24,000 bases of DNA from an uncultured beta proteobacterium (GTDB taxonomy: Bacteria; Pseudomonadota; Gammaproteobacteria; Burkholderiales; Burkholderiaceae_C), in the NCBI GenBank assembly GCA_963751775.1, contig CAVVVW010000014.1:1-24000 (forward strand). The letters run 5' to 3'. Below are positions 4,035 to 19,437 of this stretch, in pieces. A program made the position numbers and the translations under genes. The notes beneath the pieces are model-generated. The model was not told the origin of the DNA. It did not search any database and saw only the letters and a list, made by a program, of their open reading frames with translations. Position 1 is the stretch's first letter, and each line of letters begins with the position of its first letter.

Positions 4035-4045
4035 CGGCGACTCTC

Positions 4046-4883: not shown

Positions 4884-4910
4884 ATCGCGATTGTGCCGTG
4901 CCGTCTACAT

Positions 4911-5335: not shown

Positions 5336-5363
5336 GCGTACTCCTGGAGCGAAGGTTCAGGCA

Positions 5364-5612
5364 TCAGGCTTCGTCCTTCGGTGCGGGATTGGCCCGAAGC
5401 TTGAAGGCGAGGACGAGAAGTGCAATGCCGGCCATGAAGAGCACAAGCCCGGGCAGCGTGATGTCGATATGAACCTTGATGTCGCCAACGCCTGCCGGGC
5501 GCTCGACCCGCACCGCGCTGTAGCCACTCACCGCCAGACACACGATCGCGCCAATGGAGGCAGTGAGTGTGGACAGACGCCAACGGTGCAAGCGGGTTTG
5601 ATCCATGGGCAC
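5364..5612 (-). CDS. small hypothetical membrane protein, 82 aa (80 aa if ATG 5606 is used)
   Basis: Two hydrophobic helices (LSTLTASIGAIVCLAVSGY, LPGLVLFMAGIALLVLAF). GTG at 5612, ATG at 5606. It is 28 nt upstream of the VOC gene, which has an AGGAG RBS. Confidence 0.5.
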   Translation of the reverse strand: MPMDQTRLHRWRLSTLTASIGAIVCLAVSGYSAVRVERPAGVGDIKVHIDITLPGLVLFMAGIALLVLAFKLRANPAPKDEA

Positions 5613-5616
5613 TGAT

Positions 5617-5700
5617 GTCTAACGGTTGACACGAGGTGCGGGCGACAGCTGGTGGAGCAAGCAGTTGCACGTCCCCTCGATGGAACGGCCAGGGCTAGGC
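5617..5700 (-). other. attC site (84 nt) of the cassette ending with the phosphatase gene
   Basis: Minus strand: TGA-GCCTAGC(R'')-ccctggccgtt-CCATCGAG-gggacgtgcaactgcttgctccaccagctgtcgcccgca-CCTCGTG-tcaacc-GTTAGAC(R', a perfect GTTRRRY match). CATCGAGG pairs with CCTCGTG, leaving one extrahelical T. R' lies 4-10 nt upstream of the next start. Confidence 0.65.
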
Positions 5701-6258
5701 TCAGTACGGCTCAAACGGAATATCCGCCTTTCGGAGCTGGGACACCAGCAGGCTCTTCCATGGGCCCTGCGGCGACCAGACTTGTGCGACCGATTCATAG
5801 GCTTGCTCCGGCTTCTCGCGACCGACGATGACGCGGTACAGGAACGTCATGCTAGAGGCGCGCATGTTGACCTGGCAATGGACGAGGACCTTGCGATCGC
5901 GAAGTCTGTCCATGGCGGCGACGAACGACTGGAAGTCGGTCTCCGTCGGATCTCCGAACTTGATCGGGATGTTCGTGAACTCAAGACCTTGCTTGCGAAC
6001 GATGTCTGCTTCACCCGCAATGGCATCTGGCACCGTGGGTGGCGCCAGGTAGATGACTGCCTGAAACCCCTGTGCTGCGAGACCAGAGAGTGCCTCCGCC
6101 GTCGGTTGACCCGACGTGACCAGCCGTGGCGATATGGACACGACGTTCGGTGCGTCGAGGACTTGACCGGCCGCGAGCGCACTCCCACACAAAGCAAGCG
6201 CGGTGACAAGCGCGAGCGCTGCCGCGGCGTGCCTATGGATGTGTGCAGCGATGCGCAT
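5701..6258 (-). CDS. secreted PTP-superfamily (DSP/DUF442-like) phosphatase-like protein, 185 aa
   Basis: Signal-peptide-like N-terminus (AAAALALVTALALCGSALAAG). The motif ...KVLVHCQVNMRASSMTFLY resembles the HC(X)nR(S/T) P-loop of Cys phosphatases, but the spacing read here is C-X4-R rather than C-X5-R. Confidence 0.65.
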   Translation of the reverse strand: MRIAAHIHRHAAAALALVTALALCGSALAAGQVLDAPNVVSISPRLVTSGQPTAEALSGLAAQGFQAVIYLAPPTVPDAIAGEADIVRKQGLEFTNIPIKFGDPTETDFQSFVAAMDRLRDRKVLVHCQVNMRASSMTFLYRVIVGREKPEQAYESVAQVWSPQGPWKSLLVSQLRKADIPFEPY

Positions 6259-6281
6259 CCCGTGGGCCCCAAGGCTTCAAC

Positions 6282-6698
6282 TTACGCCCGGCGAAGATTC
6301 GCATCGGGAACACGCCGCGACAGCCACAGAAGATAGGTGCCGACGACCGCATCGACCACGAAGCAGAACACGGGATACCAAACCGGAACGCCAGTGTTTG
6401 TGATGAGCTGGCTGTGTACCAGGTCGTACAGCCCGTGCAGCAGCCAGAATGCGCCGACCACGACGGCCGACTGGCGGACGCTGACAAAAGCGAAGACAAG
6501 GCCGGCAACGACGTACGGCGCGCCGTAGATCATCTCCTTGACGCCCACGGCCGGCTCGCCTGCCTGCAAAGCGAAGAACGCGTAGAGGCCAGGCAGCGTG
6601 AGCAGGCCCAACGCATACAACCAACGTTCGCCACGAATGAATCGCGCGGTCACGATCGTGAGAACACCAACCGCCGCACCGATAAGTGCCTCGATCAC
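6282..6698 (-). CDS. hypothetical 4-TM membrane protein, 138 aa
   Basis: VIEALIGAAVGVLTIVTARF...AFWLLHGLYDLVH... GTG 6698-6696 is preceded by GAGGAG (6 nt spacer). It overlaps the upstream stop as GTGA (6695-6698). Confidence 0.65.
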   Translation of the reverse strand: MIEALIGAAVGVLTIVTARFIRGERWLYALGLLTLPGLYAFFALQAGEPAVGVKEMIYGAPYVVAGLVFAFVSVRQSAVVVGAFWLLHGLYDLVHSQLITNTGVPVWYPVFCFVVDAVVGTYLLWLSRRVPDANLRRA

Positions 6699-7147
6699 AG
6701 CTCGCTCCTCTCTGTAGACGCATGACGTTGGGGCTGAGGGGCTGGCGCCGGGAGTTCGCTTGGCCCGCGGCGCGGCGGGAAGCGCCACCAAACGAACAGC
6801 ACCAACACTGCAAACGCGGAGTAGCCCACGGTGAAGACCCAGACCGGCGCCTCGTAGTAAATGAGCCTTTGGAGCCAGTGCTCGATGAAGCTCTTCTCGT
6901 ACGCAGCGGCGCCTGCTTGAACGCGGAGCCAGGATTCCAGAGTCGTGAGCGGACAGAACTGCCCCAACCAGACCTGAAGGACGACAACGGCAATGGCTGC
7001 CAGATGCGCCGACCGGAACCACAACTGGTTGGCCCAGCGCCAGTGCAACCAGTTTCCTGCCACAACGACGACAAGGCCGCCAACAACGAAGAGCACGACG
7101 CCGAAGTGGAAGACGAGCACTGCATCCGCCAGAAGCTGGTAGGGCAC
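6695..7147 (-). CDS. DUF2784 family membrane protein, about 150 aa
   Basis: VPYQLLADAVLVFHFGVVLFVVGGLVVV...CPLTTLE... matches the DUF2784 pattern as I recall it. A GTG start at 7147-7145 is proposed (AGGA 8 nt upstream). The upstream part of the ORF-track ORF overlaps the CZB gene. Confidence 0.6.
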   Translation of the reverse strand: MPYQLLADAVLVFHFGVVLFVVGGLVVVVAGNWLHWRWANQLWFRSAHLAAIAVVVLQVWLGQFCPLTTLESWLRVQAGAAAYEKSFIEHWLQRLIYYEAPVWVFTVGYSAFAVLVLFVWWRFPPRRGPSELPAPAPQPQRHASTERSEL

Positions 7148-7174
7148 GAGTGGAGTCCTCGCGTCGAACCAGGC

Positions 7175-7181
7175 GTTAGGC
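7175..7181 (-). other. orphan attC R'' box GCCTAAC (perfect RYYYAAC) containing the TAA stop of the CZB gene
   Basis: The minus strand reads gtcGCCTAACgcctgg. No foldable partner or R' was found before the DUF2784 start 28 nt downstream. This suggests a truncated attC and fused cassettes. Confidence 0.4.
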
Positions 7182-7562
7182 GACAGCGCTGTAGCCAACT
7201 GCGGGCTTGTACTCGCCAATCTGGCGTCGCAGCGACTCGATGGCAAGAACGATGGCGCGCGACGCCAGCGCATACGGAGTTCCGGCGCCCAGCATCTGCT
7301 CGGCTTCGGCGTAGCTGCGGGCGTTGATCATGGCGGCCACGTCGGCGGCGCGGCGGTGAAATCTTGCGTGCGCAACCAGGCACTCCTCATGTGCGGGCAG
7401 CGCGCCATATCTTGACTTGGACGGGCCGTGCAGCCAGCGTCCAAGCTCGCAGCACGCGTCGCTCGCTATCGTGTCCAGGTCGAGAGTGGCCTTTTCGGAG
7501 ATCGCCCCGCGCAGCCTGATCTTCCAATCCGTGTGCGCGTTGGTTGCCTCCGTGAAGTTCAT
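7176..7562 (-). CDS. stand-alone CZB (chemoreceptor zinc-binding) domain protein, 128 aa
   Basis: MNFTEATNAHTDWKIRLRGAI...CCELGRWLHG...HEECLVAHARFH shows the H-x3-W...C-x-LG-x-WL...H-x3-H CZB pattern. The ATG at 7562-7560 was verified. Confidence 0.8.
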   Translation of the reverse strand: MNFTEATNAHTDWKIRLRGAISEKATLDLDTIASDACCELGRWLHGPSKSRYGALPAHEECLVAHARFHRRAADVAAMINARSYAEAEQMLGAGTPYALASRAIVLAIESLRRQIGEYKPAVGYSAVA

Positions 7563-7614
7563 GATGTGCTTCGCCGTTTGGAGGTGCGTGCGCGGGGGGC
7601 GACGTGATCGCGTG

Positions 7615-8094
7615 TCAGTAGGGAAGGCAGTTCTTGTGAACGAATTTCCACGTCCCGTCGACAAACAAGGCTTTGAGGTCGTCGTCTGGATAACTCCCTA
7701 CGTCTCCCGGCGTTCTATCGCCGACCTCGAGGTAAACAACCTCTTCCGAGGTTTCGTTCATCAGACGGTGACCATTCCCCGTTCCGGCTTTGAAGCCCGC
7801 GCACATGCCTGGCGCCAGGCGAGCGAGACCTTCGTCGGTATGCAGTGTGGGGTGGCCTTGCAGGATGTAGATGAACTCATCCTGCTTGGTGTGGGCGTGG
7901 CGAAGGGCTGAGACCGCACCAGGTTCGAGGCGCGTGAGGTTGACGCCGAAGTTGGTGAGACCGAAGAGATCGCCGAGCGGATGCTTCTGCCTGCCGGACA
8001 TGCGAGAGGCGAACGGCTCGGGGTAACTTGAAGGCTTGACGCGCTTGGGCGCTTCGGCAGCCGTGACCACGGTTGGGTAGGAGTTCTTTGCCAT
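7615..8094 (-). CDS. cupin domain protein, 159 aa
   Basis: ...GVNLTRLEPGAVSALRHAHTKQDEFIYILQGHPTLHTDEG...LAPGMCAGFKAGTGNGHRLMN is a cupin two-motif core. The ATG at 8094-8092 was verified. Confidence 0.85.
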   Translation of the reverse strand: MAKNSYPTVVTAAEAPKRVKPSSYPEPFASRMSGRQKHPLGDLFGLTNFGVNLTRLEPGAVSALRHAHTKQDEFIYILQGHPTLHTDEGLARLAPGMCAGFKAGTGNGHRLMNETSEEVVYLEVGDRTPGDVGSYPDDDLKALFVDGTWKFVHKNCLPY

Positions 8095-8138
8095 GTGAAG
8101 CTCGCGAAGTAGGGCAATGAGGGCTGACGTTTGCCCAT

Positions 8139-8477
8139 TCACTTGGATTTCTTCGCCGGCAAACCGGCCACGTAGCCCACGCACCAGGACACCCACGCCA
8201 GAAGGTCTCGGTCTTCGGCCAACCCCGGTGGGTCGATGTAGACGTAGCCTTTCATCGGTTTGCCGGTGAACTTCATCTCACGCACGTGGGGAAGAGCCAA
8301 GGCATCTTCATATCGCTCGGCGCCCACGCGTGCCATGAGGCTCGCGCCCGATATGCCTACGAACATCTTGCCTTCGACGAGGAATGCGAGCCCGCCGAAC
8401 ATCCTGCGCTCCGACACGAGTTCCCGACCGGCAAGCGCCTCTCGAACACGTTGAGCAAGACCTTCGTCGAATGCCAT
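8139..8477 (-). CDS. TfoX/Sxy N-terminal domain protein, 112 aa
   Basis: MAFDEGLAQRVREAL...ERRMFGGLAFLVEGKMFVGI... is TfoX_N-like. Confidence 0.85.
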   Translation of the reverse strand: MAFDEGLAQRVREALAGRELVSERRMFGGLAFLVEGKMFVGISGASLMARVGAERYEDALALPHVREMKFTGKPMKGYVYIDPPGLAEDRDLLAWVSWCVGYVAGLPAKKSK

Positions 8478-8483
8478 GTTGAG

Positions 8484-8499
8484 CTGCCTAGCTGCCTAG
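8484..8499. repeat. perfect 8-bp tandem duplication ctgcctag x2 at the R' end of the MAPEG attC
   Basis: Read directly: 8484-8491 equals 8492-8499. On the minus strand it duplicates the core-like CTAGGCAG. Confidence 0.9.
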
Positions 8500-8552
8500 A
8501 CGTTGAATTTCAGCCGCCGCCGGAACAGGCCCGCTCGAGCGAGGCCTTAGGC
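8495..8552 (-). other. attC site (~58 nt) of the MAPEG cassette
   Basis: Minus strand: GCCTAAG (R'', 8552-8546, contains the TAA stop)-gcct-CGCTCGAG-cgggcctgttccggcggcggctgaaat-TCAAC-GTCTAGG (R'-like). GCCTA pairs with TAGGC. The TCGAG box and the TCAAC-GT junction are shared with the attC sites at 5617 and 8977. Confidence 0.5.
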
Positions 8553-8942
8553 CGCACCCGCCGCGCGGGAAAGACACCAGACGCCAAACCCGAGCATCGG
8601 TACAAAGGTGAGGATCATTCCGATGGCGCGGGGAAGGCCCCAACCCTTGAGGATGAGTATGGCCGCATGCATGACGCGACCGACGAAAAGTGATGCTCCG
8701 CCAGTCCACAAGAGCCATGCTGGGGCCCCCGTGAGTTCTGCGGCCGCCATTGCCAGCAAGACGATCGGGACAGTTTCCGTGTAGTTTCCGTGCGCCCGCA
8801 TGCGACGCAAGAGCGTCTGGTCGCCGCCGTCAAAGAATTGAATGCCCGTGCGTGCCCGCCTATAGCCAACCATCACGGTGAGCGGAATCTGCAGCACAGC
8901 GAAGGTACCAATGAACAGGGTCGAGGTTGGGATGCCGATCAT
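8547..8942 (-). CDS. MAPEG family membrane protein, 131 aa
   Basis: ...LQIPLTVMVGYRRARTGIQFFDGGDQTLLRRMRAHGNYTETVPIVLLAMAAAEL... is MAPEG-like (RAHxNxxEYxP-type motif). Confidence 0.85.
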   Translation of the reverse strand: MIGIPTSTLFIGTFAVLQIPLTVMVGYRRARTGIQFFDGGDQTLLRRMRAHGNYTETVPIVLLAMAAAELTGAPAWLLWTGGASLFVGRVMHAAILILKGWGLPRAIGMILTFVPMLGFGVWCLSRAAGAA

Positions 8943-8976
8943 GTTTGTACCTCAGTGAGGAGGAGATTGAATGTGT

Positions 8977-9049
8977 GGCCAACGTTCGACGTGAGCCGCA
9001 GCAACAAGCATGCGAAGCGTGCTTGTTGCTGTCGGCTCGATGGAGTGGT
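8977..9049 (-). other. attC of the first (GNAT) cassette, L''-to-R' part, separated from its R'' box by the group II intron
   Basis: Minus strand: ACCACT-CCATCGAG-CCGaCAGCAACAAGCA-cgcttcgca-TGCTTGTTGCTGCGGCTC-ACGTCGAAC-GTTGGCC (R', 8983-8977). A long imperfect hairpin spans 8994-9037 with one extrahelical base and a central GCGAAGC mini-hairpin. Confidence 0.7.
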
Positions 9050-9624
9050 GTGCGCCCAGCATGGGCGCGAACTTATGGGGTGCAAGTCCCCTGTGGGAGT
9101 ACCGACTTGGACTCATCGTGAGCAAGGATAACCACGAGCCGACGGCAAGGGCAAGACCGCGAGGTATTGTCTGGAGGAAGCCCGAGTGCAAGAGGTGCGA
9201 GGCGACGGACAGAAACCGCATACAAGGCCGAGGGCTGCGAGGCGAGCTGGCACATGACAGCAAAGCCCAGCGGTACGCAGCCTACGGTAAATGCGGCGCT
9301 TGTGCACCGACAGTTCGCGTCCCTTACCTGGGGAGATCTGCACCGCGAGCGGTGCGCGTCGATGGTGGCAAAACCCGGATGGTTCACACCGGGACACCAA
9401 GAACCGAGCGCCGCGGCGAGCTGCCCGCTGCGAGCGATGAACAGGCAGCAACCACCATCGAAGCGCACAGCGCGGCACGCGGCAACGCGCGACGTGACGG
9501 CGCAGAAGTCAGCAGACGCCGTAGTAGGCGGCCGGGAGTCGGGCCGCTGAAGGGCTGAACAACAGAGACACAAGGAGCAGACGTTGCCGACCTCGAACGC
9601 ATCGACCAAGCCCGACCGGGCGAG

Positions 9625-10904
9625 ATGCGCGCGGCGGCCGGCACGCACCGAGCCTTGAGACAAGACGAAGCAATCACTGAAGACCTGCTGCAAGCGGTGC
9701 TGGCCAGCGACAACCTGGCGCGGGCGTGGAAACGGGTGAAGGCCAACCGGGGAGCGCCGGGCATTGACGGCGTGACCATGCAGGACTGGCCCGCCCATGC
9801 GCGCGACACACTGGCCGGCGTTGCGAGCGCAGATCGAAGGCAAGGGCGATACCGGCCGCAGGCGGTGCGAAGGGTGCGAGATACCCAAGCCCGACGGCGG
9901 CAAGCGGCATGCTCGGAATTCCCACGGTCACCGACCGTGTGGTCCAGCAAGCCATCGCCCAAGTGCTCACGCCGATCTTCGATCCGACATTCTCGGAATC
10001 GAGCTTCGGGTTTAGACCGGGCCGCAATGCACACCAGGCGATCAGGCAGGTGCAGGCGAGCGTGAAGGCCGGCTGGCGCATCGCGGTGGACATCGACCTG
10101 GCCAAGTTCTTCGACACGGTCAATCACGACGTGTTGATGAGCTTGCTGGGGCGAACGATCCGCGACAAGCGACTGCTGGCTCTGATCGGGCGCTACCTGC
10201 GCGCCGGGGTGCTGGTCGGTGAGCACATCGAACCGAGCGAGGTGGGCACGCCGCAAGGCGGGCCACTGCGCCCATTGCTGGCCAACATCCTGCTGCACCA
10301 GCTCGACCGCGAGTTGGAACGGCGGGGCCACCGCTTCGCGCGCTACGCCGACGACATGATCATTCTTGTCAAGAGCCGACGCGCCGCGCAGCGGGTCATG
10401 CGCAGCATCACGCGATACCTGGAGACGACCCTCAAGCTCACGGTCAACCCTGCCAAAAGCAAGGTCGCGCCGATGAGCGAATGCAGCTTCCTGGGCTTCA
10501 CCATCCAGGGCAAGAAGATTCGCTGGACCGACAAGTCGGCGGCGGAATTCAAGCACCGGGTGCGTGAGCTGACGGGGCGAAGCTGGGGCGTATCGATGGA
10601 CCACCGGCTGCACAAGCTGGGGCAATACCTGCGGGGCTGGACGGCGTACTTCGGCATCAGCCAGTACTACCGCCCGGTGCCCGAACTGGACGACTGGATC
10701 AGGCGACGCATCCGCATGTGCTACTGGAAACAGTGGCGCTGGGTGCGCACGAAGATCAAGCACTTGCTGGCTTTGGGCGTGAGCCTGAAGACGGCGATCC
10801 AGCATGGCGTCAGCAGCAAGAGCTATTGGCACATGGCGCGAACCCCGGCGCTGCAGCAGGCACTGTCCAACGCGTGGTTGAAAGCGCAAGGCTGGTCAGC
10901 GTGA
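9625..10904 (+). pseudogene. group II intron reverse transcriptase/maturase (no endonuclease domain evident), disrupted by four frameshifts in the RT0-RT1 region
   Basis: Frame 1 gives ...LLQAVLASDNLARAWKRVKANRGAPGIDGVTMQDWPAHARD. Frame 2 gives HWPALRAQIEGK. Frame 1 gives GRYRPQAVRRV. Frame 2 gives EIPKPDGGKR. Frame 0 (ORF 9909..10904) gives MLGIPTVTDRVVQQAIAQVL...RYADDMIILV...(X/maturase)...SNAWLKAQGW. The span is 1280 nt (426 codons + 2), consistent with +1, -1, +1, +1. Confidence 0.8.
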
Positions 10905-10978
10905 AGGACAGTGGTGCAAGGCCCAGGGCTACACCACTTGAAGGAACGAACGCTTCGTCGAGCGAGCCGACTTGTTGA

Positions 10979-11047
10979 ACCGCCCACTGCGGACCCGCAC
11001 GGTGGGTGGTGTGGGGGCTGGGGGTCAGAAACCCCCGGCTACCCGAT
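10979..11047 (+). ncRNA. group II intron domains V and VI
   Basis: DV (10979-11010): CCGCCCAC/GTGGGTGG outer helix, TGCG-GACC-CGCA inner helix and tetraloop, and a 2-nt CG bulge on the 3' strand. DVI (11013-11044): GGGGG/CCCCC helix with a bulged A at 11041, 7 nt from the 3' end. Confidence 0.7.
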
Positions 11048-11541
11048 TAGAGCGCATCTGCACCGAGCGCCCGCGCCGGCAGCCAACAGGCCATGCGAGT
11101 GACTTTGCACCCACGGCGCGTGAACTGGCCGGAAATTGGAAAGAAGCCCAATGAGCGGTAAGCGTTCAAGGCGTGCGGCGTGGAGTTGAGCTCAACGGTC
11201 TTCACTTCCGGGAACACCTCTTCTATGTGAGCGCGCGCCGCCTCCCACAGACCTCTGGCCACACCCCGACGCAGATGCCGTGGATGCACAAAGAGCATGC
11301 TGATCAGTGACGGGCGTGGCATAAGGATGAAGCCAACGACCTGTTCTCCTGAAACTTCGGCAGCGGCGAAAGCCGGAGCTTTCAGGAGTTCTGCCATTGC
11401 CTCGGGAGACGTCTCAGCAAGAAGCCGTTCGCTGGCACTCGGCTCCCAGTCAGCTGCGGCCAGTTCACTGAAGCTCTCGTGCACGAGCCGGGAGACTGCC
11501 ACTGCCATCTCTGACGTCGCGGTAACCAGTGTTCGGCTCAT
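11047..11541 (-). CDS. GNAT family N-acetyltransferase, 164 aa (first integron cassette)
   Basis: ...VVGFILMPRPSLISMLFVHPRHLRRGVARGLWEAARAHI...ELNSTPHALNAYRSLGFFP shows the GNAT motifs. The TAA stop lies in the attC R'' box and is regenerated at the intron junction (TA from the exon; the final A comes from intron nt 11047, or from 9049 if the intron is removed). Confidence 0.85.
   Translation of the reverse strand: MSRTLVTATSEMAVAVSRLVHESFSELAAADWEPSASERLLAETSPEAMAELLKAPAFAAAEVSGEQVVGFILMPRPSLISMLFVHPRHLRRGVARGLWEAARAHIEEVFPEVKTVELNSTPHALNAYRSLGFFPISGQFTRRGCKVTRMACWLPARALGADAL
11048..11054 (-). other. R'' (inverse core) half of the first-cassette attC (restored sequence CTCTAAC), split by the intron
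   Basis: The minus strand reads GCGCTCTA | (intron) | ACCACTCC. The insertion point on the intron strand is GGAGTGGT/TAGAGCGC. Confidence 0.7.
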
Positions 11542-11544
11542 GCG

Positions 11545-11553
11545 CTCTAACTA
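11545..11553 (-). other. attI/first-cassette recombination core (minus strand TA-GTTAGAG) immediately upstream of the GNAT ATG
   Basis: The minus strand reads ...(IS)cacTAGTTAGAGCGCATG. GTTAGAG fits GTTRRR. It is the reverse complement of the R'' CTCTAAC of the same cassette, as expected for a circularisable cassette. Confidence 0.65.
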
Positions 11554-12660
11554 GTGGACTGTAACGTTTAAATAGGAAGTATCATCGTGCCTGTGGAGGG
11601 CGCGATGGAACTGACCAAGACCGAACTCATGGAACTGCAGCGACAAGCCAGTGCGAGGAACGGTCGAGCCGATGCGGCGCGACACGCTCGACTGATCCTG
11701 CTGTTGGCCGATGGACTGACGTGGGCCGAGATTCGCGCCAAGCTCGACTGCAGCGACAGCTACATCGATCGCTGGAGCAAGCGCTTTGCCGCCGATCGGC
11801 TGGCCGGACTGTTTGCTCGCCATGCTGGGCGCGAACGCTACAAGGTGACCGATCGCGTCGAGGCGCGCGTGCTGGCCCGCACCACCAAGCGCAAGCCCGC
11901 CGACGGCTCGACGCACTGGTCCTCGCGCAAGCTTGCCGCCGAACTCGGCGGCGACATCTCGCACATGACCGTGGCACGCATCTGGGCCAAGCATGGCATC
12001 AAGCCGCATCGGCTCGAGGGCTATCTCGCCTCCAACGATCCCAGACTTCGAGGCCAAGGCCGCCGACGTCATCGGGCTGTACCTGAACCCGCCGCAGCAC
12101 GCCGCAGTGTTCAGCGTCGATGAGAAGACGGCGATCCAGGCGCTGGACCGCAAGGATCCGGTGCTGCCGTTGTCGCCCGGACGCGCCGAGCGTCATGGGT
12201 TCGAGTACTTCCGACACGGCACGCTGTCGCTGTACGCGGCCTTCAACACCAAGACCGGCGAAGTGCTCGGCAAGACCGCAGCCCGCCACACCTCGGCCGA
12301 GTTCGTGGCCTTCCTCACCGACATCGTGGCCAACCAGCCTCGCGGCAAGGAGATCCACGTCATCGCCGACAACCTCTCGGCGCACAAGACCAAGCAGGTC
12401 GACGCGTTCCTGACTGAGCATCCGCGACGTTCATATGCACTTCACCCCGACCTACTCGTCCTGGCTCAACCAGGTCGAGCTGTGGTTCGCCAAGATCGAG
12501 CGCGACGTGATCGCCCGCGGCGTGTTCACCTCCGTGCCAGACCTCAAGCGAAAACTCATGCGCTACATCCGTCAATACAACAAGCAGCCCAAAGCCCGTG
12601 AAGTGGAAGTACTTCGATCCCACACGGCGCATCACTCCCGATTCAATCGTTACGGCCCAC
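11554..12660 (+). mobile_element. IS630-family insertion sequence (1107 bp) with a TA target duplication in a CTAG site
   Basis: Terminal inverted repeats are GTGGACTGTAACGTTTAAAT (left) and GTGGGCCGTAACGATTGAAT (right, reverse complement), 16/20 identical. TA is present at 11552-11553 and 12661-12662. Removing the IS restores aaCTAGat. There is a single transposase gene. Confidence 0.85.
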
Positions 12661-12663
12661 TAG
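11605..12663 (+). pseudogene. IS630 family transposase (HTH plus DDE), interrupted by three +1 frameshifts
   Basis: Frame 1: MELTKTELMELQRQ...THWSSRKLAAELG...PHRLEGYLASNDP. Frame 2: DFEAKAADVIGLYLNPPQHAAVFSVDEKTAIQAL...IHVIADNLSAHKT...FLTEHP. Frame 0: HFTPTYSSWLNQVELWFAKIERDVI...YNKQPK. Frame 1: VKWKYFDPTRRITPDSIVTAH*. Shifts lie near 12044, 12428 and 12595. 1059 nt = 352 codons + 3 extra nt. Confidence 0.85.
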
Positions 12664-12813
12664 ATATAGACATGTGGTGGTACCGGCCTCAGAGTTGCGT
12701 ATGCAGCCGGCGACTACCGCGATGCTACGCGGCGGCTCCCCTCTGTGGAAGCCCCGAAAACTTCCCACCTTTGGGGGATCGCTCGGCGTCATACGCGGCC
12801 TAAGAATTGGCGG
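12661..12813 (-). promoter_or_regulatory. attI region plus the divergent intI/cassette promoter region (inferred), displaced from its core by the IS630 insertion
   Basis: A 151-bp non-coding spacer lies between the IS target site and the intI ATG, in the position of attI in all integrons. No Pc or PintI hexamers or LexA box could be assigned confidently. Confidence 0.4.
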
Positions 12814-13855
12814 ATGGACGACCAACACGACTCCCCCGCTGCCGAGCCGCCCGGCGCCACTCCCGCGGCCGTCGATCGCCCGTCGCTTCAGCCGCCGGTA
12901 CGCCTGTTGCCGGCGCTTCGCGAGGCGATCCGGGTGCGGCACTACTCGCTGCGCACGGAGCAGGCTTATGTCGGCTGGGTGCGCCGCTTCGTGCACTTCC
13001 ACGGCTTGCGCCACCCGCGCGAACTCGGTGCACCCGAGGTCGAGGCGTTCCTGACGCAACTGGCCAGCCTGCGCAATGTGTCGTCGTCGACGCAAGGCCA
13101 GGCCAAGTCGGCATTGCTGTTCCTGTACAAGCAGGTGCTCGGCATCGAGTTGCCCTGGCTCGACGAGGTCGTCTCGGCCAAGGCTTCGCGGCGCTTGCCT
13201 GTGGTGCTGACGCCGCGCGAGGTGCGCGAGTTGCTGCTCAACCTCGAGGGCGGTACGGCAGGCTTGGTCGTGGCGTTGCTCTACGGCACCGGCATGCGCT
13301 TGCTCGAAGGCTTGCGCCTGCGCGTCAAGGACGTCGAATTCGAGCGCCGGGAAATCATCGTGCGCGAAGGCAAGGGCGGCAAGGATCGTGTGACCGTGTT
13401 GCCCGAGAACCTGATCGCGCCGCTGCGCGGCACAGCTCGAGCTGGCGCGCGAGTGGCATCGCAAGGACGCGGCTGCCGGTCGCGCCGGCGTGTGGCTGCC
13501 CGATGCGCTGGCGCTCAAGTACCCCAAGGCCGCGACGGCGTGGGGCTGGCAATGGGTGTTCGCCAGCCCCACGTTGTCGATCGACCCGCGCAGCGGCGTC
13601 GAACGGCGCCACCACCTGCACGAGCAATCGGTTCAGCGCGCGGTGGCCGGCGCCGCGCGCCGCGCCGGCATCGACAAGCCCTGCACGCCGCACGTGCTGC
13701 GCCATTCGTTCGCCACCCACATGCTGCAGCAGGGCTACGACATCCGCACCGTGCAGGAGCTGCTCGGCCACAGCGACGTGAAGACGACGATGATCTACAC
13801 CCACGTGCTCAACCGCGGCGGGCGCGGCGTGATGAGCCCGCTGGATCGGATCTGA
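12814..13855 (+). pseudogene. intI: integron integrase IntI (tyrosine recombinase with the IntI-specific insertion), one +1 frameshift near 13427-13431
   Basis: The N-terminal frame gives ...[30 protein letters not shown]...[21 protein letters not shown]...[25 protein letters not shown]. The next frame gives [66 protein letters not shown]...[37 protein letters not shown]. The ALxxKYPxA...W.WVF...DPRSG..RRHH block is the IntI hallmark. 1042 nt = 347 codons + 1. Confidence 0.9.
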
Positions 13856-13874
13856 AGGTGATCGGCACAGCGAA

Positions 13875-13894
13875 CCCGACACCTGCGTGTCGGG
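13875..13894. terminator. perfect 8-bp hairpin between the convergent intI and higA genes
   Basis: CCCGACAC-ctgc-GTGTCGGG, read directly. There is no clear T-tract, so Rho-independent function is uncertain. Confidence 0.45.
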
Positions 13895-13905
13895 GCCGTG
13901 CAGCG

Positions 13906-14214
13906 CTACGCTGCCAACACTTCGCGCGGCACGACGCGCCGCTTGATGTCGGCGCGTGTGGGCAGGGTCTTCAGGTCGTAGTCCGCCTGCAGCGCCAGCC
14001 AGGAAGCAGCGTCACCGCCGAAGTGCCGCGCCAGCCGCTCAGCAGTGTCGGCGCTGACGCCGCGGCGCTCCTTGACGATCTCGTGGATACGCGTTGCCGG
14101 TACCGCCAGGGCGGCGGCCAACGCGTTCACGCTAAGTCCCAGCGGGGCGAGAAACTCTTCGCGCAAAACTTCACCGGGGTGTACCGGACGCATGCGGTTT
14201 GCAGGGCGGGTCAT
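13906..14214 (-). CDS. higA: HigA family antitoxin (XRE-type HTH), 102 aa
   Basis: ...[57 protein letters not shown] is the canonical HigA/VapI HTH pattern. It lies 12 nt downstream of the toxin gene. Confidence 0.9.
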
Positions 14215-14226
14215 GATTCAACTCCT

Positions 14227-14505
14227 TCAGTGGTAATCGACGATCTCGACACCGGCCGGGCCGTTCTCGGTCCAGGAAAAGCAGGCGCGCCACTGATCGT
14301 TGACGCGGATGCTGTACTGGCCGGCGCGTTCACCTTTCAGTGCCTCGAGCCGATTACCGGGTGGGCTGCGCAGAAATTCAAGCGTTCGCGCCGCATCGAG
14401 CATCGCGAGTTTGCGAATTGCCGCAGCCTCGATGGCGCGAAATCGCCTCGGGTGTCGGCCCTCGAACAGCGCTTGCGTGTCCTTGCAGCGGAACGATACG
14501 ATCAC
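14227..14505 (-). CDS. higB: HigB-type (RelE/ParE superfamily, 'plasmid maintenance system killer') toxin, 92 aa
   Basis: (M)[38 protein letters not shown]...[24 protein letters not shown] is the typical HigB pattern. GTG start at 14505-14503. Confidence 0.9.
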
Positions 14506-14515
14506 GCCGCAATGA

Positions 14516-14534
14516 TATTACGTTGAACGTAATA
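14516..14534. promoter_or_regulatory. candidate HigA operator: perfect palindrome TATTACGT-tga-ACGTAATA just upstream of higB
   Basis: Read directly. It lies 11-29 nt upstream of the higB start. TA operons are classically autoregulated through such palindromes. Confidence 0.5.
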
Positions 14535-14572
14535 CGGCAAGCAGGATGCGCTGGCGCTCGTTTGCCGCTCAA

Positions 14573-15199
14573 TCAGCGCGGCCGCGAAGACAACGCCGCG
14601 GTATAGAGGCCCAGGCCGATGTAGGTCGCCGCGGCGGCGTAGCGGCCGAGCCCCGCGATGCGCTGCGCGCCGCGGCCGGCCAGCGCCCGGCCCACCGCGC
14701 CGGCCAGCAGCACGTAGCCGCTGTCGGTGGCGGCGGCCAGCAGCACGAACACGCCGCCGAGCAGCGCCGCCTGCGGCGCCGCGGCCGCGGCGGGGTCCAT
14801 GAACTGCGGCAGGAAGGCGGCGAAGAACAGCGCCGTCTTCGGGTTCAGCAAGGCCACGACGAAGCCGTCGCGAAAGATGATCGCCAGCCGCGGCGCGCCG
14901 AACGCGCCCGGCGCCGCAGCGGCCGCCGGCGGCTGCCGCAAGGCCTGCACGCCCAGCCACACCAGGTACGCCGCGCCGGCCCATTTGACGATCGTGAACG
15001 CCGCCGACGAAATCGCGAACAGCGCGGCCAGCCCGAGCGAGGCGCCGAGCGCGTTGCCCAGGTTGCCCAGCGCCACGCCGGCCACCGAAGCCAGGCCCGC
15101 GCTGCGCCCCTGCGCCAGCGTGCGCGCCACGATGTAGGCCACGCCCGGCCCCGGCGTCACGGCCAGCACCAGGCTGGCGAGCAGGAAGGCAATTGACAT
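14573..15199 (-). CDS. LysE/RhtB family amino-acid exporter, 208 aa
   Basis: MSIAFLLASLVLAVTPGPGVAYIVARTLAQGRSAGL...NPKTALFFAAFLPQF is the LysE family signature. Confidence 0.9.
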   Translation of the reverse strand: MSIAFLLASLVLAVTPGPGVAYIVARTLAQGRSAGLASVAGVALGNLGNALGASLGLAALFAISSAAFTIVKWAGAAYLVWLGVQALRQPPAAAAAPGAFGAPRLAIIFRDGFVVALLNPKTALFFAAFLPQFMDPAAAAAPQAALLGGVFVLLAAATDSGYVLLAGAVGRALAGRGAQRIAGLGRYAAAATYIGLGLYTAALSSRPR

Positions 15200-15208
15200 G
15201 TCGAGCCC

Positions 15209-15276
15209 TCAGGCCAGCGCCGGGCCGCCCAGCGGCCTGAGCTCCCCTGGGGGACGCGAGCGCAGCGAGCCAGGGG
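15209..15276 (+). repeat. REP-like two-hairpin intergenic repeat, copy 1
   Basis: tcaggccagcgccgGGCCGCccaGCGGCCtgagctCCCCTGGgggacgcgagcgcagcgagCCAGGGG. It is near-identical to 21471-21542 (differences are small indels in the first loop and after CCCCT). Confidence 0.85.
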
Positions 15277-15284
15277 CAGTCATA

Positions 15285-16053
15285 TCACTCTTCGAGCTCG
15301 GACTTGGCCAGCTCGACGTCGAGCCGCTCCATCGCGTCGGCCGGCGTGCAGGCGGCGGCGTCGGCATACAGCTTCTCGGCTTCCTTCATCTTCTTGTCGC
15401 CCTCGAGCATCACCAGCCCGTTGGCGTACTCGATCATCGCGATCGCGCTGTCGGGGTTGAGCTTGAGCGCCTGCTGGAACAGCGCCAGCCCGATGGCCTT
15501 GCTCGCGCCCTGCGTCTTGCCCAGCAGCGTGCCCACCTTGTCGATCACCTCGGCATGGAAGGCGCCCAGCGCGATATGCGCGTCGGCATGCTTGGGCGCC
15601 AGCGCGATCGTCTTTTCGAGCGCGGCCTTCACCTTCACGCCCAGGCCCTGCGACAGCGCCTTGGCCACGCTGATGCCCTGGCTGTAGCGGCCGATGGCGT
15701 AGGCCATCCAGTAATGCGCGTTGGGGTTCTTCGGCTCGGCGGCGGCCTGCGCCTGCGCGCGGGCCATCACTTCCTGGAACATCGCCAGCCGGGTCTTCTC
15801 GTTCTTCTCCAGGTAGTTGGCGTAGATCGCCTGCGCCTTGTTGGCCACCGTGATGCCGTCGCCGCCCGCCTTCAGGCCGGCGTCGAAGGCCTTGCGGAAT
15901 TCGCCGGCATGAAACAGCACCCAGGCGTCGAGCACCTCGCCGCCTTTCGGCGCAGGCTCGGCGTCGCCGGTGTGCAGGCGGGCCCACTGCTTCTTCAGCT
16001 TGGCGGCGTCGAAGTCGTACAGGTCGTAGCGGGAAGGCGGTCCATTTGGGCAT
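15285..16053 (-). CDS. TPR-like helical repeat protein (~255 aa); the start codon is out of frame by one nt
   Basis: The long frame reads ...PNGPPSRYDLYDFDAAKLKKQWARLH...NPNAHYWMAYAIGRYSQ...ALKLNPDSAIAMIEYANGLVML... ATG 16053 has GGAGA 9 nt upstream but is in the +1 frame (ATGCCCAAATGG). Removing one C or A gives MPNGPPSRYD... 769 nt = 256 codons + 1. Confidence 0.7.
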
Positions 16054-16078
16054 GTCGTTTGTCTCCGGTTGCGATCGG

Positions 16079-16741
16079 TCAGCTCTGGCGATAAGGCGCC
16101 ACCAGCCCGTGCAGGTGGTCGCGTTCGGCCGCTTCGAGGTAGGGCATCAGCAGGCTGAGCACATGGTAGGCGCCGCGCGAGAGCGCCGCGCCGGCGCGCT
16201 CGGCCTCGAGCGCGCGCCGCGGGTCGCGCACGTACTCGTAGCTCAGCCAGTAGGTCAGCACCACCACCATCGCGGTGGCCACCGGCTCGGCCTGCGCGGC
16301 GTCGATCTTCACCGCCTTGCCGCGCGCCAGGCCGCCGAGCACGGCCTGCACCGCGCGGCCCTTGTTCTTCAGCACCGCCTGGAAGTGCGTCTCGAGGCGG
16401 CGGTTCTTGCTCAGCAGGTCGTTCAGGTCGCGGTACAGGAAGCGGTAGCGCCAGATCAGCTCGAACAGCATGTGGAAGAACAGCCACGCGTCTTCGACGT
16501 TGCGCACGCCGTCGGCGGCGCGCAGCAATTCGTCCAGCGCCGTCTCGTAGCGGCCGAACAGGGCGTTGATCAGCTCGTCCTTGGCCGGGTAGTGGTAGTA
16601 CAGGTTGCCCGGGCTGATACTCAGCTCGGCCGAGATCGCCGTCGTGCTGACGTTGGGCTCGCCGAAGCGGTTGAACAGCTCGAGCGTGACTTCGAGGATG
16701 CGCTCGGCGGTGCGGCGCGGCTTCTTCGGGGTGTCGGCCAT
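16079..16741 (-). CDS. TetR/AcrR family transcriptional regulator, 220 aa
   Basis: ...RTAERILEVTLELFNRFGEPNVSTTAISAELSISPGNLYYHYPAKDELI is the TetR N-terminal HTH. Confidence 0.9.
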   Translation of the reverse strand: MADTPKKPRRTAERILEVTLELFNRFGEPNVSTTAISAELSISPGNLYYHYPAKDELINALFGRYETALDELLRAADGVRNVEDAWLFFHMLFELIWRYRFLYRDLNDLLSKNRRLETHFQAVLKNKGRAVQAVLGGLARGKAVKIDAAQAEPVATAMVVVLTYWLSYEYVRDPRRALEAERAGAALSRGAYHVLSLLMPYLEAAERDHLHGLVAPYRQS

Positions 16742-16753
16742 GGTGCGGGCGAT

Positions 16754-17617
16754 TCAGGCGGCCGGCTGCGGCCGGGCTTCGAGCGAGCGGCTGAACAGCA
16801 CCAGCGCCACGCCGCCGAGGATCGCGGCCGACGCCAGCACCAGGCGCAGCGAAAACGCCTCCGCCAGCAGCAGCACGCCGGCGATGGCCGCCAGCGGCGG
16901 CACCGACAACTGCACGCTGGCCGCGCGCAGCGCAGACAGGCCGGGCAGCGCGGCATACCAGACCACGTAGCCCAGGCCCGAGGTCACGGCGCCCGACGCG
17001 ATGGCCAGTGCCACGCCGCCGGCGCTGGCGTGCATGGCGCCGGCGAAGGCGACGCTGAGTGCCAGCGCCAGCGGCGCGGCGCGCAGGAAGTTGCCGGCCG
17101 TGGCGGCCGTCGCGTCGCCCGCGCCGCGGCCGCGCAGCGTGTACACGCCCCAGGACACGCCGGCCACGGTCATCAGCGTCGCGCCCAGCGGCGCCGGCGC
17201 GGCGATGCCGGGCGACACCAGGTAGAGCAGGCCGGCCACCGCCAGCGCCAGCCCGCACCAGGCGCTGGCGGCGAAGCGCTCGCCGGCGTGCAGCCCGGCG
17301 CCGAACATCGTCAACTGCACCGCGCCGAACAGGATCAGCGCGCCGGTGCCGGCGGCCAGCGACAGGTAGGCGAACGAGAAGCAGGCCACGTAGGCCCACA
17401 GCATCACGGCGGCCAGCCAATCGGTGCGCGCGGTGGCGGGCGGGCTCGCGCGCAGACGCATGATGGCCGCCAGCACCACCGCGCCCGACACCAGCCGCAC
17501 GCTGCCGAAGCTGGCCGGGTCGATGCTCGCCTGCTGCAGCGCCAGCCGGCACAACAGCGAGTTGGCGGCAAAGGCCAGCATCGCCACGGCGGTGAGCAGC
17601 AGGGTGCGGGCAGACAT
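16754..17617 (-). CDS. EamA/DMT family transporter, 287 aa
   Basis: About 10 predicted TM helices with a duplicated EamA-like pattern (...AFAANSLLCRLAL..., ...SGAVTSGLGYVVWYAALPGLSA...). It lies 12 nt upstream of the TetR gene and is probably in one operon with it. Confidence 0.85.
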   Translation of the reverse strand: MSARTLLLTAVAMLAFAANSLLCRLALQQASIDPASFGSVRLVSGAVVLAAIMRLRASPPATARTDWLAAVMLWAYVACFSFAYLSLAAGTGALILFGAVQLTMFGAGLHAGERFAASAWCGLALAVAGLLYLVSPGIAAPAPLGATLMTVAGVSWGVYTLRGRGAGDATAATAGNFLRAAPLALALSVAFAGAMHASAGGVALAIASGAVTSGLGYVVWYAALPGLSALRAASVQLSVPPLAAIAGVLLLAEAFSLRLVLASAAILGGVALVLFSRSLEARPQPAA

Positions 17618-17683
17618 GCGTCGAGGGTGGCCAGGCAGAGGGGCCGCCAGTATCGCGCAGCACGCTGCCTACAATCGACCGCC

Positions 17684-18607
17684 ATGCCCGCTGCCGTTGT
17701 GTTCGACCGTGTTGCCAAGATCTATCCCAGCCGCTCCGGTGCCCGCGCCGATGTTCACGCCCTCGACGGCGTGTCGCTGGCCATCGAGGAGGGCGAGTTC
17801 TTCGGCCTGCTCGGCCCCAACGGCGCCGGCAAGACGACGCTGATCTCGGTGCTCGCGGGCCTGACGCGCGCCAGCACCGGCCGCGTCACGGTGATGGGCC
17901 ACGACGTGGTGGCCGACTACGCCGCCGCGCGCCGGGCCATCGGCGTGGTGCCGCAGGAACTGGTGTTCGACCCCTTCTTCTCGGTCGGCGAGTGCCTGCG
18001 CATCCAGAGCGGCTACTTCGGCATCCGCGACAACGGCGCCTGGATCGCCGAGTTGCTGGCCGGGCTGGGCCTGGCCGACAAGGCCGACGTCAACATGCGC
18101 GCGCTGTCGGGCGGCATGAAGCGCCGCGTGCTGGTGGCGCAGGCGCTGGTGCACAAGCCGCCGGTGATCGTGCTCGACGAGCCGACGGCCGGTGTCGACG
18201 TCGAATTGCGCCAGACGCTGTGGGGCTTCATCGCCAGGCTGAACAAGCAGGGCCACACCGTGCTGCTGACGACGCATTACCTCGAAGAGGCCGAGGCGCT
18301 GTGCGGCCGCATCGCGATGTTGAAGCAGGGCCGCGTCGTGGCGCTCGACCGCACCGCGAACCTGCTCGCCGGCACCGCCAGCACCATGCTGCGCTTCAAG
18401 ACCGACCAGGCCTTGCCGCCAGCAGTGGCGGCACATGCCCGCGTGACCGGCCGCATGGCCCAGGTCACGGCGCACGACGCGGCCGAGGTCGAGACCATCC
18501 TCGGCCAGTTGCGCCAGGCCGACGTGAAAGTCGAAGACCTCGAGATCGGCCGTGCCGACCTGGAAGACGTGTTCCTCGAGATCATGCAGCGCGAGACCGT
18601 GGCATGA
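17684..18607 (+). CDS. ABC transporter ATP-binding protein (ABC-2 exporter type), 307 aa
   Basis: Walker A GPNGAGKTT, signature LSGGMKRR, Walker B VIVLDEPTAGVD and the H-loop TTHYLEE are all present in the C-terminal part of ORF 16046..18607. ATG at 17684. Confidence 0.9.
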   Translation: MPAAVVFDRVAKIYPSRSGARADVHALDGVSLAIEEGEFFGLLGPNGAGKTTLISVLAGLTRASTGRVTVMGHDVVADYAAARRAIGVVPQELVFDPFFSVGECLRIQSGYFGIRDNGAWIAELLAGLGLADKADVNMRALSGGMKRRVLVAQALVHKPPVIVLDEPTAGVDVELRQTLWGFIARLNKQGHTVLLTTHYLEEAEALCGRIAMLKQGRVVALDRTANLLAGTASTMLRFKTDQALPPAVAAHARVTGRMAQVTAHDAAEVETILGQLRQADVKVEDLEIGRADLEDVFLEIMQRETVA

Positions 18608-18662
18608 GCCGACGGGCCGCTCCCAAGGCGAATACCGCAGTGCGCAGCACGGAGGTCACCTG

Positions 18663-19424: not shown

Positions 19425-19437
19425 TCCTGGGCCTGGA

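Follow-up and report, generated by a model that had tools for sequence, protein, structure and literature searches.

An IS630-family element inserted in the attI site of a chromosomal integron from an uncultured betaproteobacterium

What does an integron lose when an insertion sequence (IS) lands between its integrase gene and its cassettes? The question is raised by a 24,000-nucleotide stretch of DNA from an uncultured betaproteobacterium (hereafter the window), in which such an element separates intI from a cassette array. A preliminary description, made from the sequence alone, regarded this platform as triply disabled: no functional attI, a polar block after cassette 1, and a broken integrase. 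Our analysis indicates that an IS630-family element very probably transposed into a CTAG within the attI of a sedentary chromosomal integron of the Burkholderiales, cutting attI from cassette 1 in an integron that is decaying.

The inserted element

The element and its immediate flanks comprise the following features.

11552–11553, no strand: left copy of the TA target-site duplication, which with C 11551 forms the C-TA adjoining the IS
11554–12660, plus strand: IS630-family insertion sequence, 1107 bp (NF033545, 250 bits; Pfam DDE_3 and HTH_32/23/29)
11554–11573, plus strand: left terminal inverted repeat, GTGGACTGTAACGTTTAAAT, the same terminus as in relatives
11606–12663, plus strand: transposase reading frame, interrupted near 12040, 12424 and 12591 by three 1-bp insertions that intact relatives lack (three-frame translation and indel mapping)
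12641–12660, plus strand: right terminal inverted repeat, whose reverse complement is GTGGGCCGTAACGATTGAAT
12661–12662, no strand: right copy of the TA target-site duplication, with G 12663 next to it

After three 1-bp corrections, the transposase matched the profile NF033545 ("IS630 family transposase"; cut-off 100 bits) with 250 bits over model positions 1–299 of 299, and Pfam DDE_3 with 84 bits together with HTH domains. The terminal inverted repeats of the window copy pair at 16 of 20 positions and are the longest inverted repeat of the region; in a second assembly of the locus, L083 (ENA ERZ25039478, contig_7809), 18 of 20 positions pair and the right repeat reads GTGGACTGTAACGATTGAAT. 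Profile match and direct reading thus agree with the earlier view of an IS630-family element with 16/20 inverted repeats and a TA duplication in CTAG. Its orientation was also as described, transposase and intI both lying on the plus strand and the cassettes on the other.

The element shares with the IS630/Tc1-mariner superfamily (NF033545) a DDE transposase with N-terminal HTH domains, a length of ~1.1 kb, short terminal inverted repeats and the TA duplication in CTAG. It differs in its three 1-bp transposase insertions and in the stop codon of the ORF, a TAG made up of the duplicated target TA and the flanking G. Intact relatives encode a 351-aa transposase (89–94% identical), whereas the window copy lacks a single intact ORF and is a defective member of the family; with a frameshifted transposase, it could probably move only if complemented in trans. 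The insertions at 12424 and 12591 are common to the window and L083, that at 12040 is private to the window, and L083 has its own at 12278. A programmed frameshift was ruled out, as hundreds of relatives carry one 351-aa ORF. The window IS is 83–89% identical at the nucleotide level to three intact copies (L087, L097 and L100), and the nearest copy in a cultured organism is that of Caballeronia sp. SBC2 (transposase 88.9% identical).

The insertion point within attI

Three features define the integrase side of the locus and its junction with the cassettes (carets below mark junctions, slashes the crossover).

11542–11551, minus strand: cassette-strand junction G/TTAGAGCGC; G 11551 is attI-derived and TTAGAG... 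is the start of cassette 1
12663–12813, minus strand: intI-proximal part of attI and intI leader, 151 bp, detached from the crossover core
12814–13855, plus strand: intI, integron integrase, frameshifted by a single additional C at 13431

attI lies upstream of intI, the first cassette is joined at G/TT and the cassettes diverge from intI, the order expected of an integron. The corrected IntI scored 466 bits against TIGR02249 (cut-off 265) and aligned end to end with VchIntIA (PDB 2A3V), including ALKYP...RRHH; it is an IntI-type tyrosine recombinase with the additional domain, the window copy being frameshifted once.

With the IS removed, the cassette strand reads ...GTCTATATCTA G/TTAGAGCGCATG; the restored attI site is ...GTCTATATCTAGTTAGAG..., with ...CTAGTGGGCC as its intI-side remnant. 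The insertion point lies 1 nt 5' of the G/TT crossover. All four CTAG bases are attI-derived, the G being the crossover G before cassette 1. Cassette 1 is left with TAG/TTAGAG only, the R-box core staying on its side, and the 151-bp remainder of attI now adjoins the IS end (...CTA^GTGGGCC). The preliminary description had placed the IS in the TA directly 5' of G/TTAGAG, in agreement with both the restored junction and the cassette boundary in another integron (L001, see below). It had also left the crossover core with cassette 1 and displaced the 151-bp spacer and intI, and we could confirm this displacement, which amounts to 1109 bp.

The restored junction, CTCTAAC^TAGATATAGAC, agrees with those of four IS-free relatives. 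The attI sites of related integrons take the form YYYAAC^TAGATNTAGAC, like the restored window site: GTCTAAC^TAGATGTAGAC in L003, AAC^TAGA..TAGAC in L016 and L039, and GTTCAAC^CCAAATATAGAAC in L107. In these IS-free relatives the ...AAC of the cassette directly adjoins TAGAT(N)TAGAC or ATATAGA, which is the predicted attI architecture. L107, from a lineage with a 94%-identical IntI and the same chromosomal synteny, is the closest empty site; the context intI-(HigBA)-LysE-RMD1 is kept in L107, L108 and L109. An IS-free allele of the exact locus was sought in a scan of metagenome contigs with the 24-mer TAGATATAGACATGTGGTGGTACC from the attI side, which gave 0 matches. Moreover, the spacer at 12663–12813 aligns with the intI-upstream regions of L107, L108–L110, L003 and L041, with the cassette junction exactly at its left end. 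attI is therefore split by the IS. By analogy with attI1, the insertion would separate the 7-bp R core from the part of attI that binds the integrase, and so lie between the L and R boxes; upstream of intI, the relatives' alignment displays conservation blocks only.

Cassette 1, its intron and the array

Beyond the junction, cassette 1 is itself interrupted.

8982–9049, minus strand: 3' part of the cassette 1 attC, ending ACG/TTGGCC (covariance model R1, 35.1 bits, E 1.7e-7)
9050–11047, plus strand: group II intron, putatively of the IIC-attC type (Rfam RF02001, 118 bits; RF01998, 63 bits)
11047–11541, minus strand: cassette 1 ORF, GNAT acetyltransferase, 164 aa (Pfam Acetyltransf_10/1/7)

The TTAGAG... 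at the start of cassette 1 is the remainder of the R' core of its own attC, and the R'' core, CTCTAAC, is the exact complement of GTTAGAG. An identical GNAT protein is encoded in L001 and L002 (Logan SRR28023356). The same cassette (505 bp, 99.6% identical) sits in L001, a different integron, behind another cassette's attC, and its junction there, ...gatcG/TTAGAGCGCATG, confirms G/TTAGAG as the boundary of cassette 1.

The intron lies antisense in the R'' core of the cassette 1 attC, at T(G)GT^TAGAG. Its boundaries were set by comparison with the intron-free attC of L001, to which the 3' part of the cassette 1 attC is 97% identical. The reverse-transcriptase (RT) ORF is broken in the window, and an intact 437-aa RT (RVT_1 and GIIM) is present in L002 and L083; compared with L002, the window intron differs by 68 substitutions and by 8 indels of its own. 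No match to the Rfam model of domain V/VI was found in the intron (E ≤ 0.1), and we infer class IIC from the target and from our reading of the 3' end. Like group IIC-attC introns such as S.ma.I2 (PMC8876359), the window intron occupies a TTGT^T-type site of an attC and runs antisense to the cassettes; like S.ma.I2, it also cuts the gene of the first cassette off from most of that cassette's attC. According to PMC8876359, which cites Leon et al. (2010), such introns interrupt Pc-driven transcription yet supply an outward promoter for downstream cassettes. Because published IIC-attC introns supply such a promoter, the proposed polar block after cassette 1 is not established.

We called attC sites with a covariance model, a naive regex-plus-folding scan having been dropped as swamped by false positives at 67% GC. 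Model R1 gave two clear matches and one marginal match in 11.5 kb that hold about 16 small genes in one orientation, separated for the most part by junctions of 23–53 nt; related arrays contained 2–16 matches per 10 kb. This scarcity of attC sites, which is independent of the IS, fits a largely fossil array. It also lends the idea of a "frozen archive" a line of evidence that the preliminary description had not used.

Consequences of the insertion and alternative readings

These observations suggest a history in which the GNAT cassette would have been captured at an intact attI, recently, given the 99.6% identical copy in another integron. Later than the GNAT capture, the IS would have entered the CTAG of attI, duplicating the central TA. 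The array behind cassette 1 had already lost most of its attC sites, and for this reason we regard the locus as a whole as a decaying integron. A group IIC-attC intron would also have entered the cassette 1 attC, at a time left free relative to the other two events. The window-only intI frameshift would have arisen later, or be an assembly error.

As a result, attI would take up new cassettes, and release cassette 1, at a strongly reduced rate or not at all. A close parallel is IS1999 (IS4 family) in the attI1 of veb1 class 1 integrons of Pseudomonas aeruginosa, where recombination fell 6-fold although 34 bp of attI were retained, and where a 7-bp core by itself was poor (PMC3518468). In both cases attI is the site of insertion, and the element comes to lie between intI/Pc and the first cassette; a further likeness lies in the IS1999 case having its first cassette stabilised through lower attI recombination and its Pc displaced (PMC3518468). 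The two cases differ in IS family and target rule, the window element being an IS630 with a CTAG/TA target, and in the extent of the damage: the window insertion is 1 nt from the crossover and leaves only the 7-bp core, whereas 34 bp that include three IntI-binding sites remain in the IS1999 case. The hosts are a sedentary chromosomal integron in an environmental betaproteobacterium and a mobile class 1 integron, respectively, and the window IS has a frameshifted transposase and at most a weak candidate for an outward promoter.

With respect to transcription, a promoter in attI or intI would need to read 1.1 kb antisense through the IS. A consensus scan of 11000–13200 returned no sigma-70-like promoter or terminator, with a consensus that may not be the host's, and scans for promoters and terminators around the IS and the intron gave nothing usable. 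Read-through across the IS is possible, because no terminator is predicted in it, and the uncoupling of Pc from the array that the preliminary description proposed is at most weakly supported. By eye, the left IS end shows a weak candidate for an outward promoter (-35/-10 ATGATA, 16 nt, TACAGT; 11585–11558, minus strand), which matches 8/12, under the tool's threshold.

Xanthomonas chromosomal integrons have reportedly been inactivated by disruption of intI, as Gillings and co-workers are said to have described in 2005. Those integrons are likewise sedentary at a conserved locus, with decay by IS, possible intI frameshift and degenerate attC sites. In the window locus, by contrast, what all assemblies share is a damaged attI rather than a damaged intI, and the population retains an intact intI allele.

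That allele is carried by L083, whose intI encodes an intact 346-aa IntI (P0121; found on one contig only by protein search) and lacks the extra C that the window alone has at 13431, L083 being otherwise 98.9% identical. Judging from this comparison, the frameshift is a late mutation of the window's own or else an error of assembly, and the claim of a broken integrase is at most weakly supported. The IS copies of the window and L083 are 96.7% identical; differences lie mainly in the IS and the intron, and the flanks are about 99.9% identical. Divergence so confined suggests repeat-related assembly noise, and the private frameshifts, that of intI included, may be unreal. General sequencing error as the cause of the frameshifts was ruled out by the ~0.1% difference and single indel outside the IS and intron relative to L083, and by the intact long chromosomal ORFs on the right side.

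Might the platform, then, not really be disabled? In that case, consensus errors of a repeat-rich, mixed-strain assembly would account for the frameshifts of intI, transposase and intron RT; the integrase would be functional, attC × attC recombination ongoing and the cassettes transcribed by read-through or from IS or intron promoters, and the IS would merely lower attI activity. The intact IntI and intron RT of L083 at the same locus speak for this reading, as do the clustering of indels and other differences in multi-copy elements, the lack of a predicted terminator in the IS, the weak promoter candidate at its left end, the outward promoters reported for group IIC-attC introns (PMC8876359) and the residual recombination of an IS1999-disrupted attI1 (PMC3518468). 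Nevertheless, the transposase frameshifts at 12424 and 12591 are present in both assemblies, and intI is single-copy, with its indel outside any homopolymer. Furthermore, just 3 attI-derived bases remain beside the core, against 34 bp in the IS1999 case, and most downstream genes lack an attC and are thus not excisable anyway. We consider a platform in working order a serious possibility, albeit not the probable one.

A different question is whether the insertion, here taken as a single transposition into attI, reflects a systematic bias, whereby a CTAG-requiring IS630 would be channelled into integrons because CTAG is strongly depleted in the core genome of the host but retained in attI, degenerate attC cores and cassettes. 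The window contains 9 CTAG against 73 expected from base composition, 7 of the 8 distinct sites falling in the integron part and several in degenerate attC cores (GCCTAGC, GCCTAGT and GTCTAGGC). Across 12 related loci, CTAG had an observed/expected ratio of 0.22 on the array side of intI, compared with 0.05 on the opposite side, and CTAG stands at the attI junction in the window, L003, L016 and L039. Against this, no relative of the window IS was found in 80 related integron loci (tblastn with the transposase and a regex for the IS ends), and none of 35 metagenomic loci with IS left ends flanked by TAAC had an intI homologue or obvious cassette context nearby; one event cannot, moreover, establish a bias. 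We therefore judge it unlikely. The earlier statement that the CTAG preference of IS630 makes GTTAG cores preceded by TA natural targets fared unevenly: close relatives of the IS do occupy C-TA^IS^TA-G at at least six other independent sites, but neither of the two surveys gave it support. It is quite doubtful that integrons hold, in attI, degenerate attC cores and foreign cassette DNA, most of the CTAG available in CTAG-depleted betaproteobacterial genomes and are preferential landing pads for CTAG-specific IS630 elements; if it were true, IS630 insertion would be a recurrent way in which sedentary chromosomal integrons lose attI and fossilise.

Lastly, a chimera in which two IS copies, one by the GNAT cassette and one by attI, were collapsed into one is highly improbable: the clade is very abundant (thousands of close homologues) and the interior divergence of the IS is as expected of collapsed repeats, but removing the IS and one TA restores the AAC^TAGAT.TAGAC junction of related integrons exactly, which a random join would not, the TA duplication is present, and both junctions recur in L083, an independent long contig. 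The insertion is not an assembly accident, since it recurs in L083 with identical junctions on both sides and in L002, a short-read contig, with an identical left junction.

The transposition of an IS630-family element into attI, our preferred reading, calls for no new mechanism: IS disruption of attI, CTAG targeting by IS630 and group IIC-attC introns have all been described, and the insertion is an ordinary kind of event in a well documented case. Its value lies in being a clean natural example in which an IS cuts the attI of a chromosomal integron one base from the crossover, at a locus known from one allele with an intact intI and one with a frameshifted intI, and with a first cassette whose recent history can be traced. 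The locus could serve as a natural test of the attI length needed for capture outside class 1 integrons, and it illustrates the decay of sedentary integrons.

A defective IS630-family element in a chromosomal integron

The insertion sequence (IS) lies between an integron integrase gene and a run of small, co-oriented genes on the minus strand.

Main features around the insertion
11554-12660, transposase on the plus strand: IS630-family element, 1107 bp, between intI and the minus-strand gene run
12814-13855, plus strand: integron integrase gene intI (TIGR02249, 466 bits against a cut-off of 265, one extra base removed)
13906-14505, minus strand: HigB/HigA toxin-antitoxin pair, between the 3' end of intI and a LysE gene

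The window has a G+C content of 67%. Its IntI and the Vibrio cholerae IntIA structure 2A3V aligned over their full lengths, the integron-specific insertion included; this IntI has its closest relatives in MAGs of Hydrogenophaga, Methylibium, Comamonas and Rhizobacter. The minus-strand genes left of the IS encode GNAT, MAPEG, TfoX_N, cupin, CZB, DUF2784 and PTP proteins, and the same run also holds glyoxalases, DJ-1/PfpI, a second GNAT and GFA. Synteny around intI is common to the window and three related integron loci (L107, L108 and L109). The IS is hosted by a sedentary chromosomal integron, at a conserved Burkholderiales locus. The HigBA module is also found in L107, whose IntI is 94% identical, but is absent from L108 and L109, where LysE directly follows intI. 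A short-read contig (L084) carries an identical module (644 bp, 100% identity) beside a DUF4258 gene instead of intI, with identity ending at window position 13901. The module thus seems either mobile or present in two contexts.

The terminal inverted repeats of the IS match at 16 of 20 positions and form the longest inverted repeat of the region, and TA flanks the element on both sides. With three 1-bp shifts bridged, the transposase frame scored 250 bits against the NCBIfam IS630 equivalog (cut-off 100) and also matched Pfam DDE_3 and HTH domains. The preliminary description of an IS630-type element with inverted repeats and a TA duplication, its transposase co-oriented with intI and a 151-bp spacer (12663-12813) between them, was thus borne out. 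A protein search returned thousands of close relatives, the best of which are 89-94% identical and encoded by one unbroken ORF of ~351 aa; among cultured organisms, Caballeronia sp. SBC2 has the closest copy, on one of its replicons (88.9% protein identity, annotated as an IS630 family transposase). Since the relatives encode a single uninterrupted ORF, programmed frameshifting is ruled out as the cause of the broken frame. Relative to intact copies, the window IS has gained one base each near 12040, 12424 and 12591. All the defining features of IS630 that we tested were present except an intact ORF; hence, this is a defective member of the family, and the copy is probably non-autonomous. We also noted that the transposase ORF crosses the right inverted repeat and that its TAG stop consists of the duplicated target TA and the flanking G (12658-12663), a target-derived stop also seen in intact relatives and in a second assembly of the locus (L083, ENA ERZ25039478).

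DNA around two of the relative transposase proteins has the same termini as the window IS (GTGGACTGTAACG...CGTTAC.G..CAC). At least six different insertion sites of relatives have C-TA as the left flank and TA-G as the right; this clade therefore inserts into CTAG, the classical IS630 target, and duplicates the TA.

Position of the insertion in attI

Three lines of evidence place the IS in attI, adjoining the crossover. First, a GNAT protein identical to that of cassette 1 is encoded in a different integron (L001, a contig of ENA ERZ25039502), behind the attC of another cassette. The cassette junction in L001 is ...gatcG/TTAGAGCGCATG, and the attC at the end of the cassette starts with CTCTAAC, the exact complement of GTTAGAG. 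The cassette therefore begins with TTAGAG..., the G before it being part of the recipient site. Second, the window site minus the IS and one TA reads CTCTAAC|TAGATATAGAC on the plus strand, an architecture also found in IS-free attI sites of related integrons.

IS-free attI junctions in related integrons
L003 (IntI 81% identical): GTCTAAC|TAGATGTAGAC
L016: GCTAAC|TAGATTTAGAC
L039: AAC|TAGAAATAGAC
L028 and L041: AAC|TACA.AT.GAC
L107 (IntI 94% identical): GTTCAAC|CCAAATATAGAAC, then sequence aligning with the window from 12675

The sequence left of AAC is locus-specific in every IS-free relative, and AAC therefore marks the cassette end. L107 also shares the neighbourhood of the window (intI-HigA-HigB-LysE-RMD1). 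Third, window 3903-14574 aligns collinearly (98.9% identity) with the 18.9-kb L083 contig, where this IS recurs with both junctions unchanged, and the left junction is also found in a Logan short-read contig (L002). A chimeric assembly, in which unrelated loci were joined through the repeated IS, is most improbable, as such a join would not restore an attI/cassette junction typical of the clade, complete with a TA duplication. The IS thus occupies a CTAG abutting the attI core, with the core left on cassette 1, as had been proposed.

Integron recombination occurs between G and TT, and therefore all four CTAG bases are derived from attI; the target is present whichever cassette came first. CTAG occurs nine times in the window against 73 expected from base composition, and seven of the eight distinct sites are in the integron part, several inside degenerate attC cores. 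Across 12 related loci (L005, L006, L009, L012, L039, L041, L049, L055, L058, L061, L063 and L069), the observed/expected ratio is 0.22 on the array side of intI versus 0.05 on the other, chromosomal side. Integrons do offer more CTAG targets per kb than the surrounding chromosome. No recurrence was observed, however: a relative of the window IS was absent from all 80 related integron loci, and of 35 metagenomic IS left ends that follow TAAC, none was near an intI. That integrons are landing pads for IS630 elements in general is of low probability.

Probable effects on recombination, and the state of intI

On the cassette side of the IS only TAG is left before TTAGAG; what remains of attI on the integrase side now abuts the IS end (...GTCTATATCTA|GTGGGCC). 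In attI1, IS1999 leaves 34 bp and takes away just the outermost, weak binding site, yet cointegration falls 6-fold; a bare 7-bp core of attI1 is close to a secondary site (PMC3518468). IS1999 is thus a milder lesion than the window IS. By analogy with attI1, the window attI is expected to show a strong reduction both of cassette capture and of the excision of cassette 1. Scans of 11000-13200 on either strand found no sigma-70-type promoter (by consensus) and no intrinsic terminator, so the proposed uncoupling of Pc by the IS is a conjecture.

The intI frameshift is due to an extra C at 13431. L083 is without this base and encodes an intact 346-aa IntI; the "broken integrase" of the preliminary description is thus confined to the window sequence, and the population includes an intact allele. 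With the IS and the intron set aside, L083 and the window show a difference of ~0.1%, and 13431 is the single indel. Inside the IS (11900-12600 region) identity is 96.7%, and the window intron (9800-10950 region) has eight indels and 68 substitutions versus both L083 and L002; these two concur there, and each encodes an intact 437-aa RT. This pattern suggests that the multi-copy elements of the window were affected by gene conversion, or by consensus problems (a collapsed repeat) in its assembly. The single-copy intI indel is either a real late mutation or an error, and the IS insertion is earlier whichever its origin. Two of the three transposase frameshifts are common to the window and L083, and these two are more likely real. 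A third assembly of the chromosomal flank (L085, ENA ERZ25039502, contig_150142), compared with window 13200-24000, is error-rich long-read sequence (identity only 85-96%, a great many gaps, genes in fragments) and is therefore useless for judging frameshifts.

The group II intron and decay of the array

Intron and attC sites
9050-11047, plus strand: group II intron (Rfam D1-D4 matches)
8982-9049, cassette strand: truncated GNAT attC, 35 bits
5617-5695, cassette strand: attC, 28 bits
8494-8552, cassette strand: marginal attC, 12 bits, mutated cores GCCTAAG and GTCTAGGC

Comparison with the intron-free L001 attC showed that the intron splits the GNAT attC at T(G)GT|TAGAG within its R'' core, in antisense orientation to the cassettes. 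Rfam domain V/VI (Intron_gpII) gave no match at 10900-11047 even at E <= 0.1, though D1-D4 score strongly; by eye, this 3' end contains a domain-V-like hairpin with a CGC triad, as in class C introns. Judged by its target and its 3' end, the arrangement is that of a group IIC-attC intron. The intron is inserted within the GNAT TAA stop codon (11047-11049), the third A of which is contributed by the final base of the intron (T 11047, plus strand), and hence the ORF length is unchanged. No promoter-like site in the intron exceeded the scan threshold. In S.ma.I2, Pc-driven transcription is reported to be interrupted, but an outward promoter to express the downstream cassettes (reviewed in PMC8876359); the polar block after cassette 1 that had been ascribed to the window intron is therefore not safely inferred.

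A covariance model built from 20 attC sites of related integrons detected 2-16 attC per 10 kb in relatives outside the training set (L012 and L058, 16 each; L055, 13; L108, four in 2.8 kb; L039 and L041, two each). On the cassette strand of the 11.5-kb window array, it gave only two clear matches and one marginal match. The minus strand of 1-11541 retains attC remnants with mutated cores (GCCTAAG/GTCTAGGC, GCCTAGC/GTTAGAC and GCCTAGT/TGTAGAC), and gene junctions are mostly just 23-53 nt. Most genes behind cassette 1 are therefore no longer excisable, whatever the state of attI, and the attC poverty is a sign of decay independent of the IS. For most of the array, "frozen archive" remains a reasonable term, though the grounds for it are not the three lesions (IS, intron and intI frameshift) first invoked. 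The GNAT cassette, by contrast, is a recent capture, given its canonical attC and its twin in L001 with 99.6% nucleotide identity (L001 2189-2766 versus window 11047-11551 and 8980-9046). The L001 copy is internal, without the intron and with an intact attC, in an integron whose IntI has 360 aa. The twins look like a recent cassette exchange inside one community. Right after its GNAT cassette, L001 (2864-9024) carries several nested or fragmented IS genes (DUF772, IS21 istA/istB fragments and DDE_Tnp_1_6); it is another array colonised by insertion sequences.

Decaying chromosomal integrons, group IIC-attC introns and IS insertion into attI with lower recombination efficiency (IS1999 in attI1) are already documented. 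The attI insertion described here is real and well resolved, and what sets it apart from IS1999 in attI1, and is new, is the IS family involved, the extreme closeness to the crossover, and the chromosomal setting.
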